From NCBI GenBank assembly GCA_049512315.1, contig JBEKXF010000003.1, positions 62,001 through 126,000 of the forward strand: a stretch of 64,000 nucleotides of DNA. Reading direction: 5' to 3'. This stretch comes from Candidatus Aminicenantales bacterium (GTDB taxonomy: Bacteria; Acidobacteriota; Aminicenantia; Aminicenantales; Saccharicenantaceae). Made by a program: the position numbers. Within the stretch, counting starts at the first letter, position 1. Each line of letters opens with the position of its first letter. Below, piece after piece: positions 48,001-54,000 of this stretch.

Positions 48001-51000
48001 TTCTCCGGCGCCATTTTATAGTATGATGCTCCCGGCTCAACGGAGCGAGGAGCAGCGCGATGAACACGAAAGCCGTGATAAAAGCGCCGGCGGACGAAGG
48101 GCTGAGCCGCCGGAATTTCCTCAGGACCTCGGCCACAGCGGGCCTGGGCCTGGCCTTCGCCGGAAAAGTCCTCGGCCAGGCGGCCCCTCAACCCGCCAAG
48201 CCGTCCACGGCCAAAAATCCCGACGAGCTGCGCGTCGCCGTGATCGGCTGCGGCGCCCAGGGACGGGTCCTCATCGAGTCCATCCTCCGGATCCCGTCGA
48301 TCCGGATCGCGGCCATCTGCGACATCTGGTCCTACAGTCAGACCTATACAGCCAACTACGTCAAGAAATACGGGCACATCGTCAAGGTCTACGAGGATTA
48401 CCGGGACCTCCTGGCCAAGGAAAAAGACCTCCAGGCCGCGATCGTGGCGACACCCGACTGGGTCCACGCCGAGCACGCCAACGCCTGCCTTCGCGCCGGG
48501 CTCCACGTCTACTGCGAGAAGGAAATGTCGAACTCGCTCGAGAAGGCGCGGTCGATGGTCCTGGCGGCCCGCGAAACCGGAAAGCTCCTCCAGATCGGCC
48601 ACCAGCGCCGCTCCAACCCGCGCTACATCCACGCCATCGACCGCCTCATCCGCGAGAAAAGCCTCCTCGGCCGGGTCACCGCGGCCTACGCCCAGTGGAA
48701 CCGGGCCAAGAGCGACCTCCTCGGCTGGCCCGAGAAGTACACGATCGACCAAGCCACCCTCGAAAAGTACGGCTACAGCTCCATGACGGAGTTCAGGAAC
48801 TGGCGCCTGTACAAGAAATTCGGCGGCGGGCCCATGGTCGACCTCGGCTCGCACCAGATCGACCTCTTCAGCTGGGTCTTCGGGGCGAACCCCCGGTCCG
48901 TCATGGCCAGCGGCGGGACGGACTTCTACAAGAACTGGGAGTGGTACGACAACGTCATGGCCATCTACGAATTCGATGCCGCGCAGGGCGCGGCCCGGGC
49001 CTTCTATCAGGTCCAGACGACGACCCAGCACGGCGGTTTTTATGAGACGTTCATGGGCGAGAACGGGTCGATCGTCCTCTCCGAGATCCCGACGAAGGGA
49101 AATTGGGCCCTACGGGAGCCGACCGCCCCGGAATGGGATTCCCTGGCCAAGGCCGGGCTTCTCCAGTCCGAGACGGCCCCCATCCAGAAGAGCGCCTCGA
49201 AGAATATCTTCGTCGACGTCCGGGTCACGGCCGAGGCGGGCCGCTGGCCGCTGCCCGTGGAGCTGGCCAAGCCGGCCCACCAGCCCCATCTTGAGAACTT
49301 CTTCAACGCCGTCCGGTCCGGCACGCCCCTGACCTGCCCGGCGGAGCTGGCTTACGAATCGTGCGTGGCCGTCCTCAAGGCCAACGAGACCGTCAAGGCC
49401 CGGAGGATCACGGAATTCCGGCCGGAGCAGTTCAAAGCATGAGGGCCGCCGGACGAATCGCCCGCCCGGCCCTGGGCCTTCTCGTCCTCGGGCTTTTCGC
49501 CGCCGTTTCGGCCCATGCCGGAGACCTGAAGCTGAAACCCTGGGACGGCAATCGGACAACCCCCTCTCACTTCATCCCCCTCCGCGACGAGAATAACGGG
49601 CTCATCGTGCCGACTGATACGGGCCCGATGCCCTTTTCAGCCCGCTTCACCTGCGGCCCGTGCCATGATTACAAGACGGTCCAGGGCGGCTGGCACTGGA
49701 ACGCCATGAAAGCGGAGAAAAGCGGACGCCCCGGCGAGCCGTGGATCTGGCTCGACCCGAAGACCGGGACCATCTTGCCGCTCTCCTACAGAAAATGGCC
49801 GGGCGCCTGGGACCCGAGAGTCCTCCGGCTCAACCCTTGGGATTTCACGAAGCTCTTCGGCCGGCATATGCCCGGCGGCGGACCCGCCGAGCCGGGATTC
49901 GAGGACGTCTTCCCCGGCATGGATTCGCGCTGGAACGTCTCGGGCAAGGCGGAGATCAACTGCCTCGCCTGCCACAATAAGTCGGGTCGCCAGGACCACA
50001 GCGAATGGGCGAAACAAATGCTTCGCGAGAATCTGCGCTGGGCGGCCACGGCCGCGGCCGGGATCGGGGAGGTCGGCGGCATGGCTTCGCGCCTCAAGGA
50101 GACCTGGGACGTCTACGACGGGCCCAACCTTGACGACCATGAATGGGCCGTGGCGCCGTCGGTCAAGTACAGGACGGTCGATTTCGACGGCAAGCACCGC
50201 TATTTCTTCGACATCGCCTATCCCCCCGATGACCGGAACTGTCTAGCCTGCCACTCGGTCTCGCCCGTCAAAGAAACGCGGGCAACGGCTGCGACTGACG
50301 TCCATACAGCCAAGGGCATCAAATGCGCCGAGTGCCATCGGAACGACCTTCAGCACGGCATCGTCCGGGGCTACGAAGGCGAAGCGATGGACACCGGCAA
50401 CCGGTCGGCCGATTCCTTCACCTGCCGGGGCTGTCACTTGGGCGAAGACCCGACCGGGAAGAGGATCGTGGTCCCGGGGCGCCTGGGCGCTCCTGACCCC
50501 AAGCATACTGGGATCCCTCTTGTTCACTTTAGGACGCTCGCCTGCACCGTCTGCCATTCCGGGCCGTTGCCCGAGAAGTCCTGGGCGCGGGTCCGGACGT
50601 CGCGGGCCAACCGGCTCGGGGTATACGGGGTCGCCCGGTGGTCGACGGACCTACCCGCCATCATCGAACCGGTCTACATGAAGGATGGGCAGGGCAAGAT
50701 CGGGCCCCAAAGGCTTGTCTGGCCGGCGTACTGGGCCCGGACTGCAGGCAAAGAGATCGTCCCGCTGCAGCCCGGCGTCGTGGAGGCCGCGGCGGGGGAT
50801 ATTCTCAAGTGTGAGGATCGGATCGCGGGGGTCCTCGCGGCCCTCTCCCAGACCTGCGACGAGAATGAAGTTCCCGTTCTGGCGGCGGGCGGATGGCTCT
50901 TCGAGGTCAACGTCGACGGAGGGCTTGACGCATCGCCCATGGTCGCTGCGGAAAAGGCCGGCGGCGGGGATGAGGCGCATCCCTTCTGGGGCACGAAAAA

Positions 51001-54000
51001 GGACGGGGTGATATCGCCGCTCATCCCCGATTTCAACCCCTCCGCTCAGGACAAGGACCCCGCGATCGAGCCCAGGATCCAATCCGTCCTCGAAGGTCTG
51101 GGCACGGTCGCCGGCGCGCCGGGGAAACCGATCGTCGTGGTCAGAAAAACGCTTTACCAGATCACGGACGGAAACCTCGCTTCGGCCGGGGCGCCGGCCG
51201 GGCTCGCGGGCGTTCCGGGACCGGGGTGGCTGAAAGACGATCGAATCGAGCCTCTGGCCGCGGAATTCGACATCCGGACGGTGGCGGCCACGGCCGGGAC
51301 CGAAAAAACCCTCACCGAGGAACAAGTCGGGCTCGTCCTCAAGGCCCTGGACCGGGGGGAAGCGCAGGGCAAGAAGCCGGAAAAAGGCGGGTCTTCCCCT
51401 TTCGCCTATATCTCCGGAGGACGGGCCTTCCGGCTGGACAAAGGCGGCCGGCTTGTCTCGGAGGCCGCCGGCAGTGCCGCTCCCGTGACCTGGCCCCTCG
51501 CGCATAACGTCCGCCCCGTCCAGCAATCCCTGGGCTGGAACGGCTGCACGGACTGTCATACGGCCGACTCCAAGTTTTTCTTCAAGACGGTCATGGGGAC
51601 AGGACCGCTTCTGACGCAAAACGTCGCATCGCGGTCCTCGACATCGCTCATGGGCGCCGGCGGCCTCTTCCACCGGGTCTTCGGGCTCACCTTCGCCGTG
51701 AGGCCTTTCTTCAAGGTCGTCCTCGCCCTGACGATTCTCGCGACCGGCGCGGTCCTGCTCGTCTTTTTCGTTGTCATCGCGGGGAAGCTGGCCGGGCTCA
51801 TCGAAAAGAGGTCATGACCATGTTCGCCGTCATCACGATCCTGGCACTCCTCATCTTCGGGCTCGCGCTGGCCTTCCGCCGTTTCAGAATCCAGCACCCG
51901 TCGGCGGAAGGGAATATTCTCTACGCCGCGATCATCCGCGATTTCCGGCGGTGGCTGGGCCAGAGGATTCCGGCAGTCCTATCGAAGCCCGCGCCGGCGG
52001 GCTGGCCGGCCTGGATTAAAGGCTTCCGGCTGTGGCGGCTCCCGCTTTTCGAGAAATGGCTCCTTATTGGCTTCTACGGAAGCTTCCTCTATCTCGCGGC
52101 CAGCGGGTTTTTCTTCGCCGTCTTCATCAAGCGGGGACTGTACGGCTTTCCCCTGGTCCTTCACGTCATGGGGGGGGCGCTTTTCGCCGTCTGCCTGACT
52201 CTGATCGCCTTCCTCAGGGCGCGGCGGTTTACGTTCAATCCCGGACCTCTCGCGCTGCCCGGGGACCTGGACGCCATAAGGAAATTTCGGATTCCGTGGG
52301 GCGCTCGGGACTGGGCCAAGGGCTTCTTTTGGCTGTTCCTTCTGGCCGGCTTCTCGCTTGCCGCCTCGGCCCTCCTCCCGATGCTCCCCTGGTTCCCCTA
52401 CGAGGGACAGATCATCCTTTTCGGGTGGCACCGCTGGAGCGCGCTGGTTTCGCTGCTCGCGGCCATCGCCTTCGCCGACCTCGGGCTCTTCCGTCCTAAG
52501 CCCGAAGCCTGAGCAGGAAGTTATCCGGGTTTTTTGAATCCCAAGAGATCCCCCGGCTGGCATTCCAGGACCTCGCAGATCTTTTCGAGCGTCGAGAACC
52601 GGACGGCCCTAGCATGACCCTGTTTGAGGATCGAGAGGTTGGCCATGGTGATACCCACCTTCTCCGAAAGCTCCGTGAGCGACATCTTCCGCTTAACCAT
52701 CATCAGGTCGAGATTGACTTCAATCGGCATGATCCACCTCAGACGGTCAGGTCCTGGTCCTGCTGGAGCTTGACGCCGGTCTCGAGGACTTTGGCGATGA
52801 CCAGGAATCCGAAACCCAGAAGCATGGTGCTCAGGCTTCCATAAAGGACCCGGATCGCGGTTTCCGAGAAGAGGGCCCAGGAAAAAACAGCCGGATCCGT
52901 GCCGGTCGACGACAGCGCGGTGCCTACGGCATGAATGAGCACAAGAACAAAAACGGCATATGCGATTCCGCGGATGTGCCGCGGGCTGGCGGGGCTGAAA
53001 GGTTCGCCGCGGGTGATTGAGCCGAGAAGCCGGAAGATGCAGTAGCAGATGAAAAAGTAAACAGGGCCGGCCAAACCGAAGTCCAGCAAAACGCGGAGGT
53101 CGAGTCTGAAGCCGGCGTCGGATGCTCGATGGACAAGACTGGGCGAAACGGTTAACATGATCGTGAAAGCGCTGATGAATACCAAGCCGTAAAGAATGAG
53201 AAGCGTGATGAGGACAATCCTGAGCGCTTTGACCGTCGGAGACACTCCCAAAACCATTTTCTCTGCCACACGAGCCTCCTTTTCCGTTATTTATCGATAA
53301 TCAATATATGGTCAAACATACTGTTTGTCAAGAAATAATTATTGTTTATCGATACATTTTTTCTTTTCCAAGGTTGCCCCTGATCCTGAATTTGCCATCG
53401 GGTTGCAGCGATCTCAACGGAGAATGTGCAACACGCTCCTCGAGGAGCGTGTTTTAGAGATTGAAGAACAGGAGGTTTCCATGAAAAAGGCCATCATCAT
53501 CGTCCCCCTGACCATCACCCTTGTCTTAGCGGTCACCGTAGCCTCTTTCGCCCAGCAGACGGTCAAGATCGTCGTCGTCAATTCCGCACGCGCCTTCGAG
53601 CGGTCGGCCGAAGGCAAGAAGGCCATCGCCCAACTCCAGCAGCGGGACGCGAAGATCAAGGCGGACATCCAGAGCAAGGAAGATGCCATCCGAGCCCTGG
53701 AGAGTCGGCTCAATACGGGCCGGATGACGATGACCCAGGACGCGCTCCTGGCGCTGCAGGTCGACATCGACAAGAAGTCGACCGAACGGAAACGCTACGA
53801 GGAAGACGGCGCCCGCGATTTTGCCCAGTTCCGGGACAACCTCGTGGCCCGGATCCGGGCCGAAATGGTCACGATCATCATCGCTCTGCGCAAGGAAAAA
53901 GGCTACGAACTTGTCCTCGACCTAGCCTCGAGCGGCGTCGTCGATTTCGATCCGGCCCTCGACGTGACCGACGAAGTCATCCGCCGCTATGACGCGTCCA

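Follow-up and report, generated by a model that had tools for sequence, protein, structure and literature searches.

A Tat-exported Gfo/Idh/MocA oxidoreductase, an OTR-related heptahaem cytochrome c and a signal-less ApbE form a candidate periplasmic sugar-oxidising module in Candidatus Aminicenantales

Periplasmic enzymes of the Gfo family have been reported or proposed to recycle their bound NAD(P) without any electron transfer chain, and for BT2158 the published proposal is that electrons are disposed of on an unidentified second sugar (PMC8121099). Loss of haem 2 from a cytochrome related to octahaem tetrathionate reductase (OTR) has been described for MmcA, which serves as an electron conduit (PMC11024163) and whose partner Rnf is a known ApbE client. 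ApbE recognises the canonical motif D-x-x-[ST]-G-A-[ST], and ApbE proteins stably bind FAD (PMC12052999). For one NADH-oxidising ApbE client that has been characterised, the oxidation is carried out by a distinct FMN that is bound non-covalently, and the role of the covalent FMN is limited to electron relay (bioRxiv 2022.01.20.477176). A 2021 survey of ApbE left out genes lacking an export signal.

Here we analysed a window of 64,000 nt (contig JBEKXF010000003.1, positions 62,001-126,000) from a Candidatus Aminicenantales bacterium, genome G000, in which an earlier note had proposed that an invariant trio, g00474, g00475 and g00476, oxidises glycosides in the periplasm and passes the electrons to the membrane. 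The three genes overlap by ATGA at both junctions and follow, on the same strand, three further Gfo genes, two TIM barrels, an SDR and a HEAT protein (Table 1); the second Tat Gfo of this run is BT2158-like, below cut-off. The anatomy given for the trio held up on re-examination: g00474 carries the twin-arginine motif SRRNFL and passes the TAT_signal model TIGR01409 (22.9 bits, threshold 16.7); g00475 has 792 residues, seven CxxCH motifs (residues 72, 175, 268, 296, 329, 369 and 703), a C-terminal hydrophobic anchor at about 754-790 and, in addition, an N-terminal signal; and g00476 has five hydrophobic helices, two of which hold His117 and His206.

Table 1. Features of the locus, numbered along the 64,000-nt window
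Feature	Position	Strand	Remarks
Upstream run, in order: Tat TIM barrel, Tat Gfo, SDR, Tat Gfo, HEAT protein, non-Tat Gfo, IolE-like TIM barrel	38944..47875	+	
g00474	48060..49442	+	460 aa; Tat-exported Gfo/Idh/MocA oxidoreductase with subfamily-specific variable arm
g00474 arm (residues 353-405)	49116..49274	+	Missing from, or unrelated in, the upstream Gfo paralogues; low-confidence coil in orthologue model
Asp386-Val-Arg-Val-Thr390	49215..49229	+	Candidate non-canonical ApbE site; Thr390 is the putative FMN carrier
g00475	49439..51817	+	792 aa; heptahaem cytochrome c, very probably OTR-derived; Sec signal; C-terminal membrane anchor
Vestige of OTR haem-2 site in g00475	49856..49879	+	FGRHMPGG where octahaem relatives have CxxCHPGG
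g00476	51814..52512	+	232 aa; FdnI-like cytochrome b with one additional N-terminal helix
DUF2975 gene	52739..53269	-	Part of a lineage-specific insert between trio and apbE here
Signal-less ApbE flavin transferase	54671..55723 (likely start 54713)	+	Catalytic motifs intact
Secreted F5/8 type C protein (carbohydrate-binding fold)	55698..56423	+	Conserved companion
GT-C fold PMT_2 / TIGR03663 membrane protein	56420..58000	+	Conserved companion
ThuA, 3-keto-disaccharide hydrolase (DUF1080), further Gfo	60995..63942	-	Genes of 3-keto-glycoside type

The cytochrome g00475 had been described as unnamed and without a Pfam call. The seven haems stand, but PF14522 (cytochrome c7) matches at 38.1 bits (cut-off 24.8), and we are highly confident that the protein descends from OTR by loss of the catalytic haem. 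A profile search leads to OTR 1SP3 at E 7e-11, and with a predicted model of the heptahaem cytochrome (pLDDT 94) 1SP3 was the only VIA match at Z >=8 among 48,161 chains (Z 8.7, 312 aligned residues, rmsd 4.8); the OTR match in Foldseek alone was not significant (E 0.29), and g00475 scores 23.8 bits in the OTR model TIGR04315, whose cut-off is 375. Among 150 representatives, 126 have exactly seven CxxCH motifs, all 150 lack CxxCH at the haem-2 site, and no lysine is conserved in the haem region before the anchor that could correspond to the catalytic Lys ligand of OTR. Seven histidines outside the motifs (His44, 86, 289, 306, 356, 363 and 689) are near-invariant in the same set, and all seven haems are predicted to be bis-His. 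Because these additional histidines match the haems in number, we read g00475 as an electron wire, like the archaeal MmcA. Its nearest relatives in a tree that did not include MmcA are bacterial octahaem-cytochrome b fusions, so the haem-2 loss probably occurred independently of that in MmcA. The family is large, with 498 clusters at 50% identity (E up to 1e-30, some octahaem relatives included). Octahaem relatives adjoin outer-membrane porin-like genes, with no Gfo gene beside them.

For g00476, the only informative structure match in a profile search was FdnI (1KQF_C, E 0.002). PF01292 is matched by 11 of 24 aligned members, g00476 itself not being among them, and g00476 is 34% identical to a four-His relative. 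Its His117 aligns with FdnI His57, and both His117 and His206 are conserved (58/60 each), whereas all four FdnI-type histidines are kept in only 12 of 172 cytochrome b domains. The protein is thus very likely an FdnI-type cytochrome b with one haem, which retains the ligands of that haem and has lost the two of the cytoplasm-side haem. FdnI homologues normally serve dehydrogenases.

The dehydrogenase g00474 contains PF01408 together with a C-terminal domain (71.8 bits, cut-off 24), and the model of an orthologue shows the Gfo fold (VIA Z 39), its structure matches, at about 20% identity, being Gfo enzymes with many different substrates. GxGxxG, EK and D-x-x-x-H are intact in it, with EKE where EKP is usual, and across its family GxGxxG (117/117) and the catalytic Lys154 (111/117) and His265 (117/117) are maintained; against NF058561, the model for BT2158-type glycoside 3-dehydrogenases, it reaches 84.7 bits where the cut-off is 750. 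The arm is absent or unrelated in the three upstream paralogues, and the matching stretch in the model of the L197 orthologue is coil at pLDDT 65-68. In an alignment of 32 sequences below 70% identity, the Thr390 column is Ser or Thr in 29 of the 30 non-gap rows, the next best arm column reaching 11/28. The arm motif occurs in 107 of 117 arms compared with a mean of 12 after shuffling; since the pattern was drawn from the same sequences, this measures conservation, not flavinylation. The site in g00474 is DVRVT, without the canonical D-x-x-[ST]-G-A-[ST], and the protein has no FMN_bind domain. In relatives the site reads DTGAT, DIGAT, VGAS or DADAT and so grades into the canonical core TGAT, DTGAT itself being found in one distant relative that adjoins apbE. 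On this sequence evidence we consider flavinylation of Thr390 rather probable.

The ApbE gene is an undercounted fourth member of the module and the only ApbE of G000 (PF02424, 125.8 bits, cut-off 25.6). Among ApbE proteins at such loci, DxG..KG is intact in 68/70 and D[AG]xST in 67/70, and a hydropathy heuristic finds no hydrophobic N-terminus in 69/70, where a lipoprotein signal is usual. The genome (96.6% complete) shows no match to FMN_bind or to RnfD/NqrB, and hence no canonical ApbE client. In one genome ApbE is fused to a g00474-like Tat-Gfo (723 aa), with the ApbE part preceding the Tat signal; in five relatives it is fused behind a PMT-like protein, where it may face the periplasm and serve another client. 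These observations single out the ApbE gene and Thr390 as the likely flavin part that the trio alone is missing.

Linkage of g00474 to the cytochrome is far above chance. Of 27 genome loci, 26 have the gene immediately upstream of the cytochrome, the sole miss having no upstream DNA, as the earlier note had stated for nearly all such cases, and so do all 56 metagenome loci that extend 600 bp or more in that direction. That note took the loci to be mostly close relatives, yet the trio is kept in Aminicenantes, in other genomes of the same phylum and in Planctomycetota; its nearest Atlas cluster, given as mostly Planctomycetota, proved on re-search to be mostly Aminicenantota, with Planctomycetota second; and its count of ApbE at 15 of 55 loci was too low, since an ApbE gene is present at 46 of 55 loci that extend 2 kb or more downstream. 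"Invariant" is best softened to near-invariant: in 45 of 127 relatives the cytochrome b and the cytochrome c form one fused protein, and among 15 Planctomycetota loci g00474 is adjacent in 13, with apbE between Gfo and cytochrome in three of these, while two lack an adjacent g00474 (at locus L202 there is no Gfo) and one, L192, has no cytochrome b nearby. In 401 sampled genomes of Planctomycetota, a g00474 orthologue occurs in 21, of which 19 also have the cytochrome, and the best hits of the signal-less ApbE clade fall 17/17 in genomes with g00474, the thresholds having been chosen after the results were seen, with profiles that included sequences from some counted genomes and with kin that are not independent. 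ApbE co-occurrence follows g00474 better than it follows the cytochrome. Two g00474 genomes without a cytochrome match retain ApbE, a DoxX/MauE-like membrane gene abutting Gfo instead; no ApbE was found for two g00474-bearing genomes (G366 and G677), and in G587 about 2 Mb separate g00474 from the cytochrome. Across phyla, the constant neighbour of the cytochrome is the g00474 subfamily alone and not its Gfo paralogues. DUF1080, ThuA and IolE-like neighbours recur at related loci, and the PMT-like and F5/8 genes also accompany modules that have no cytochrome, one such locus adding a GT2.

These data make it quite likely that g00474 and the cytochromes share electrons, and likely, with somewhat less assurance, that the flow is oxidative. 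NAD(P)H gives up two electrons together as a hydride, and haems accept electrons singly. A flavin is therefore required, and the trio alone would be insufficient. The periplasmic Gfo module feeding the membrane, as previously suggested, is in keeping with the anatomy, with the linkage across phyla and with the presence of TatC, CcsB and a cytochrome bd oxidase in G000, but needs this additional part. For these uncultured anaerobes we marginally favour, as the best explanation, a four-part chain from sugar through NAD, covalent FMN and haems to quinone, a route that appears to be undescribed. ApbE would attach FMN to Thr390 on the flexible arm, and folded g00474 with bound NAD and FMN would leave the cytoplasm by Tat. 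In the periplasm it would oxidise a sugar or glycoside to the keto-sugar, reducing its bound NAD, whose hydride would pass to the tethered FMN and be released as single electrons; we found no precedent in the literature for direct hydride transfer to tethered FMN. The electrons would then cross the haems of g00475 towards its membrane anchor, and the single, periplasm-side haem b of g00476 would reduce menaquinone without a membrane crossing, the quinol being reoxidised by, for example, cytochrome bd. Bound NAD would therefore be recycled by respiration and not by reducing a second sugar. For quinone supply, G000 has a MenA-like gene below cut-off, no MenG over the cut-off and no MqnA.

The same chain could use another flavin bridge, ApbE holding FAD non-covalently and being exported piggy-back with g00474, or modifying the F5/8 protein or the cytochrome, with Thr390 kept for docking or structure. 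Stable FAD binding by ApbE proteins (PMC12052999), the PMT-ApbE fusions that may place ApbE in the periplasm, a conserved Thr-Pro near the N-terminus of the F5/8 protein and, in a distant subfamily, an FGE-fold protein bearing D-A-[VI]-[ST]-x-P-T would all suit this, but we consider it unlikely given the intact transferase motifs, the grading of the g00474 arm into the exact ApbE core and the position of ApbE ahead of the Tat signal in the ApbE-Gfo fusion; g00474 would also be the only core member available in folded form on both sides of the membrane. Slightly less likely is reverse flow, in which quinol reduces the haems and g00474 reduces keto-sugars, a step that would either be the end point of electron flow or complete a 3-keto-glycoside cycle. 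Gfo enzymes are reversible, and the 12 of 172 cytochrome b domains with all four histidines could be driven by membrane potential, but electrons moving from menaquinol to NAD would have to climb about 250 mV, dehydrogenases are the normal partners of FdnI homologues, and most members, g00476 included, have no ligands for the haem on the cytoplasmic side, without which the membrane potential could not be exploited. The haems of OTR and MmcA, at about -100 to -450 mV (PMC11024163), would be compatible with it.

We give still less credence to internal recycling, by which g00474 would regenerate its NAD like GFOR or BT2158, the cytochromes forming a co-regulated wire of their own that might run, for example, to acceptors outside. 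Tat-exported Gfo enzymes have been proposed to work in this way (PMC8121099), and the reading agrees with the 2-Mb separation in G587 and with the octahaem relatives beside porin-like genes. It offers no explanation for the ATGA overlap, for a dedicated ApbE or for the DoxX-like swap, and the paralogues are not fixed to the cytochrome as the g00474 subfamily is. Least probable of these readings is a biosynthetic module in which g00474 oxidises a sugar attached to a lipid or a protein, on behalf of the GT-C transferase, and the cytochromes take up the electrons: it would account for the PMT-like and F5/8 genes that outlast the cytochrome and for the GT2 at one such locus, but the other recurring neighbours (DUF1080, ThuA, IolE-like, MFS transporters) are catabolic in type.

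If the four-part chain is correct, it offers a concrete alternative, with Thr390, one modifying enzyme and one wire, for how Tat-exported, NAD-bound sugar dehydrogenases dispose of electrons. It would add a new class of ApbE client with a new recognition motif, invisible to the large ApbE survey because signal-less genes were dropped there. It would also mean that OTR became a pure electron conduit a second time, probably independently, and that Aminicenantes and Planctomycetota which degrade sugars in sediments and peat have a respiratory branch. More tentatively, and short of an even chance in our judgement, the module may exemplify a widespread, undescribed class of periplasmic NAD dehydrogenases with covalent FMN on a swinging arm, a dedicated signal-less ApbE and a non-canonical site, in which the arm turns hydride into single electrons and membrane outlets are interchangeable (an OTR-derived wire with cytochrome b here, DoxX-like elsewhere); in that case anaerobes regarded as fermenters could respire the electrons of periplasmic glycoside oxidation.

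Compared with known systems, g00474 resembles Zymomonas GFOR and Bacteroides BT2158 (NF058561) in fold, in Tat export with a bound nicotinamide cofactor and in its DUF1080 and IolE-like neighbours; those enzymes, BT2158 as proposed, recycle the cofactor on a second sugar, whereas g00474 has the arm, dedicated cytochromes and ApbE. In LacABC and ThuAB, periplasmic glucoside 3-dehydrogenases, the catalytic subunit is FAD-dependent and not an NAD Rossmann-fold Gfo enzyme. They likewise hand periplasmic glycoside oxidation to cytochrome c (PMC8121099). With OTR of Shewanella oneidensis (PDB 1SP3; TIGR04315), g00475 shares the fold and the order and spacing of haems 1 and 3-8; OTR has eight haem motifs, whereas g00475 has seven, without the haem-2 CxxCH or the conserved Lys, and adds a membrane anchor, an insertion domain and a cytochrome b partner. 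MmcA of Methanosarcina acetivorans (TIGR04314; g00475 scores 11.8 bits, cut-off 250) is also an OTR-related heptahaem protein without haem 2 that is read as an electron conduit, but it is archaeal and belongs to an rnf operon, while g00475 is bacterial and its genome lacks Rnf. The four-helix core of g00476 is common with FdnI, the cytochrome b556 of formate dehydrogenase-N (1KQF_C; PF01292), and relatives show the GRFxxGQK and four-His pattern; with only two histidines, g00476 would have no trans-membrane haem pair and no redox loop, unlike FdnI, and its partners are the haem wire and the Gfo enzyme in place of Fe-S and molybdenum subunits. Finally, established ApbE clients (NqrC, RnfG, NosR, PceC, DUF2271, DUF3570 and the cytoplasmic fumarate and acrylate reductases) likewise show a dedicated neighbouring ApbE, ApbE-client fusion and a Thr/Ser in a short motif, and signal-less ApbE has a precedent in Klebsiella; g00474 differs from them in lacking FMN_bind, in its non-canonical motif and in that it would be a Tat-exported NAD enzyme.

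The trio, comprising g00474 (Tat-signal Gfo/Idh/MocA oxidoreductase), g00475 (heptahaem cytochrome c) and g00476 (cytochrome b-like membrane protein), was located at the position that the earlier note had given, and ATGA overlaps were found at both the g00474/g00475 and g00475/g00476 junctions. The descriptions of g00474 as a Tat-signal Gfo-type enzyme, of g00475 as carrying seven CxxCH motifs and a C-terminal membrane anchor and of g00476 as a five-helix membrane protein with two His were all borne out by the features tabulated here, while the statement that g00475 has no Pfam call had to be dropped because it passes the PF14522 cut-off. 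A promoter and terminator scan between the module genes gave nothing informative.

Coordinates of the module genes and related features (window positions unless a locus or contig is named; L-numbers are fetched loci, G-numbers genomes, G000 being the window's own)
Feature	Position	Strand	Description
g00474	48060-49442	+	Gfo/Idh/MocA models passed; twin-arginine signal
g00475	49439-51817	+	Seven CxxCH; N-terminal signal; hydrophobic C-terminus
g00476	51814-52512	+	Five hydrophobic helices; His117 and His206
apbE	54671-55723		Sole ApbE of G000
Insert	52513-54670	-	DUF2975 and small genes; parts trio from apbE in this lineage
Promoter	53331-53303	-	Near-consensus, of one gene of the insert
Tat Gfo	39894-41213		Pro-Gly-x-Thr tail
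Second set	G000:C5:118873-120957 (L210:8873-10958)		Separate tetrahaem, pentahaem and FdnI-like cytochrome b genes
Dihaem protein	G000:C7 (L212:7977-9173)		GEGP motif
Dihaem protein	G000:C11 (L213:7718-8791)		MauG-like
Secreted protein	L192:5466-8120		884 aa, no Pfam match; 3' of heptahaem gene
Octahaem fusion	L063:8885-11665		OTR-like, fused to cytochrome b domain
Octahaem fusion	L064:6454-9087		As L063
Octahaem fusion	L065:8381-11365		As L063
Octahaem fusion	L066:6431-8980		As L063
Octahaem fusion	L068:668-3172		As L063
Apparent intermediate	L204:7011-9485		CxxxxCH haem 1 and insertion as in octahaems; haem 2 lost; four-His cytochrome b fused
Apparent intermediate	L205:8824-11358		As L204
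Distant subfamily	L205:12335-13360		Stretch noted for this subfamily (see text)
Distant subfamily	L206:5910-7142		As L205
Distant subfamily	L207:8993-10225		As L205
Tandem g00474 copy	L114:5128-6495		Second copy; arm DIGAT
Tandem g00474 copy	L115:5169-6497		Second copy; arm DIGAT
ApbE-Gfo frame	L217:3314-5485 (G305:C219)		723 aa
DoxX/MauE-like gene	L220:9781-10293		Beside g00474 orthologue
DoxX/MauE-like gene	L221:4528-5052		Beside g00474 orthologue
PMT-ApbE fusion	L189		Planctomycetota
PMT-ApbE fusion	L190:11885-14413		Planctomycetota
PMT-ApbE fusion	L191:3032-5572		Planctomycetota
PMT-ApbE fusion	L194:11551-14085		Planctomycetota
PMT-ApbE fusion	L200:2836-5358		Planctomycetota

Most of the named relatives belong to Candidatus Aminicenantes. 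In 26 of 27 genome loci a g00474 gene lies immediately 5' of the cytochrome (the single miss has no upstream DNA), as it does in all 56 of the 80 metagenome loci that extend at least 600 bp upstream. Among the 66 loci that extend 800 bp or more downstream, 60 have a g00476 match after the cytochrome; the other six have a gene-sized gap before apbE, and at least one of these is a fusion. Since the upstream Gfo/TIM run is often several kb away in relatives, the stable unit is the trio, not the long operon. The module extends beyond close relatives, with matches scattered patchily over the window's phylum (10 of 301 genomes, E <1e-80) and in a Planctomycetota sample (36 of 401 genomes, E up to 1e-30). 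Twenty of these Planctomycetota loci were fetched; among the 15 of the main type, Gfo was present in 13, cytochrome b in 14 and apbE, within the stretch, in 12, three of the 15 having apbE between Gfo and the cytochrome. Exceptions include L202, which has no Gfo, and L192, with no apbE nearby and the only locus without cytochrome b.

Analysis of g00475 revealed an octahaem tetrathionate reductase (OTR) that has lost its catalytic haem. Its distant relatives carry eight haems, and alignment with them assigns haems 1 and 3-8 to g00475, whose haem-2 site reads FGRHMPGG versus CxxCHPGG in the octahaem proteins. OTR (PDB 1SP3) was the top match of a profile built from this alignment (E 7e-11). Searched by its sequence alone, g00475 had no significant match among solved structures; its model (pLDDT 94) matched 1SP3 with Z 8.7 over 312 residues, the sole match at Z >=8 among 48,161 chains, and Foldseek placed 1SP3 third (E 0.29, below significance on its own). 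An insertion domain occupies about residues 450-620. In a census of the best 150 of 1,069 representatives (34-71% identity), 126 had exactly seven haem motifs, none had haem 2 restored, and seven non-motif His were near-invariant. Seven spare His for seven haems suggest that all haems are bis-His ligated, with no open catalytic site.

A catalytic cytochrome, either nitrite or tetrathionate reductase, was rejected on these grounds, the catalytic haem site being gone and the His ligands complete. The archaeal MmcA, an OTR-related heptahaem of Methanosarcina acetivorans described in PMC11024163 as an electron conduit with haems at -100 to -450 mV, shows the same loss of haem 2, but g00475 scores far under the MmcA model and G000 has no Rnf match, so membership was rejected as well. 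In a quick tree with OTR-like outgroups, the heptahaems join the bacterial octahaem-cytochrome b fusions. Placing all heptahaems on one side has a support of 48, too low to show one origin, and L204 and L205 appear as octahaem-heptahaem intermediates. Loss of haem 2 in the g00475 lineage was likely independent of that in MmcA. Arsenic-resistance genes surround the octahaem fusions of L063 and L064, and an outer-membrane porin-like (Alginate_exp) gene adjoins those of L063, L065 and L066.

The membrane partner g00476 is a homologue of FdnI, the cytochrome b of formate dehydrogenase-N, with one predicted haem. Its family profile found FdnI (1KQF_C, E 0.002), aligning His117 to FdnI His57, and 11 of 24 family members matched PF01292. 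His117 and His206 are each kept in 58 of 60 rows with no further His conserved, and four His with the FdnI C-terminal pattern are kept in 12 of 172 domains of relatives. The HMMER alignment puts FdnI His155 seven columns away from His206; we equate the two because relatives that keep four His space them 14 residues apart, with His57 and His155 as the FdnI ligand numbers. The kept pair is the periplasm-side pair, so that electrons would stay on one side of the membrane in this module, and a trans-membrane redox loop was rejected for it since two haem ligands are missing. A long C-terminal extension aligning to g00476 was found in 45 of 127 cytochrome representatives with at least seven motifs, which argues that g00475 and g00476 are one unit, split here.

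Among the 55 loci that reach 2 kb or further downstream, 46 have the gene for ApbE, the FMN-attaching flavin transferase; in most relatives it lies directly 3' of cytochrome b, whereas in the window the lineage-specific insert intervenes. The window ApbE has intact catalytic motifs and no signal peptide, which by a hydropathy heuristic is absent from 69 of 70 locus ApbEs; a large ApbE survey, as described in PMC8238504, left out signal-less genes. Service to Rnf or Nqr was rejected because neither was found in G000 (96.6% complete), where FMN_bind and RnfD/NqrB gave no match. The canonical flavinylation motif matches six proteins across the genome, but an FMN_bind protein is not among them and this search yielded no plausible client. 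In the Planctomycetota sample, 21 of 401 genomes hold a g00474 orthologue (E <1e-150), 19 of the 21 hold the cytochrome and the best 17 of the 39 listed ApbE-clade matches (E <1e-70) all fall within the 21. The thresholds were picked afterwards, some of the same genomes had gone into the profiles, and related genomes do not count as independent. ApbE persists, together with the F5/8 and PMT genes, in the two g00474 genomes that have no cytochrome match, and there a DoxX/MauE-like membrane gene abuts Gfo, as if an alternative membrane outlet. In the assembly of one genome, and in that one only, a single frame leads from ApbE through a Tat signal into a g00474-like Gfo whose arm reads DADAT. Co-occurrence, the cytochrome-less genomes and this frame together indicate that ApbE tracks the dehydrogenase rather than the cytochrome. 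No ApbE was found in G366 and G677, both of which have g00474. In five Planctomycetota loci, ApbE is fused behind a PMT-like GT-C (PMT_2/TIGR03663) protein; from hydropathy and analogy with GT-C proteins, the ApbE end probably faces the periplasm, which would fit a client reachable from both sides, namely the Tat enzyme, and also other clients.

The candidate FMN site is Thr390, on an arm (residues 353-405) of g00474 orthologues that is missing from, or not common to, the three upstream paralogues. Its column is Ser/Thr in 29 of 30 non-gap rows (32 sequences <70% identity), against 11 of 28 for the next best arm column. In shuffles a mean of 12 arms fit the pattern hydrophobic-D-x-x-x-(G)-[ST], compared with 107 of the 117 real arms, a test that shows conservation only, because the pattern was derived from the same sequences. 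Arms of relatives read DVRET, DARET, DADAT, DIGAT and VGAS, and one relative whose gene neighbours an apbE has the canonical ApbE core, DTGAT (motif per PMC12052999, PMC11334425); the motif of the window's g00474 differs from that of canonical clients, which counts against flavinylation. The Pro-Gly-x-Thr tail of the Tat Gfo at 39894-41213, possibly a second modifiable Thr, is common to Gfo enzymes of a distant subfamily (L203-L207) in which heptahaem and cytochrome b are paired with a different Gfo type; this subfamily has an FGE-fold protein with D-A-[VI]-[ST]-x-P-T, near the ApbE motif, and the L206 ApbE has a hydrophobic N-terminus. In the model of the L197 orthologue, the stretch matching the arm is low-confidence coil (pLDDT 65-68), and complex prediction for the L197 pair (cytochrome core and Gfo, with NAD and FMN) scored 0.15 against a mark of 0.32, which is no evidence either way.

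NADH cannot reduce haem directly. In the proposed route, ApbE would attach FMN to Thr390, the Tat pathway would export g00474, sugar oxidation would reduce its bound NAD, the arm FMN would accept the hydride and feed the g00475 haem wire, and the haem b of g00476 would reduce quinone; taken whole, from sugar to quinone, this is a route we lean slightly towards accepting. G000 holds TatC, CcsB, cytochrome bd and NuoD-like genes and has no NrfD match; for quinone synthesis it has a MenA-like gene that falls short of the cut-off, no MenG that passes its own and no MqnA. The lineage is regarded as fermentative according to PMC7509429. As to substrate, Gfo enzymes acting on many different compounds are evenly represented among the structure matches, and the nearby DUF1080, ThuA and IolE-like genes suggest breakdown of 3-keto-glycosides (PMC8121099).

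The module is real, and its new elements are the derivation of g00475 from an OTR that lost haem 2, the count of its spare His, the predicted one-haem FdnI homologue and the putative link between trio and ApbE via Thr390. No description of it was found in the main text of the mostly open-access papers searched, and gene-cluster tables in the supplements of ApbE surveys could include these loci. In the tests made, g00475 fell outside OTR and MmcA, g00476 outside the four-His type and g00474 outside the canonical ApbE clients. Each part belongs to a named family, and the layout of periplasmic dehydrogenase, electron carrier and FdnI-type anchor is already known. In acrylate and fumarate reductases, as reported in bioRxiv 2022.01.20.477176, non-covalent FMN oxidises NADH and covalent FMN relays electrons, which counts against the proposed route; whereas these enzymes use a separate non-covalent FMN for NADH, the arm FMN of g00474 would itself take the hydride.
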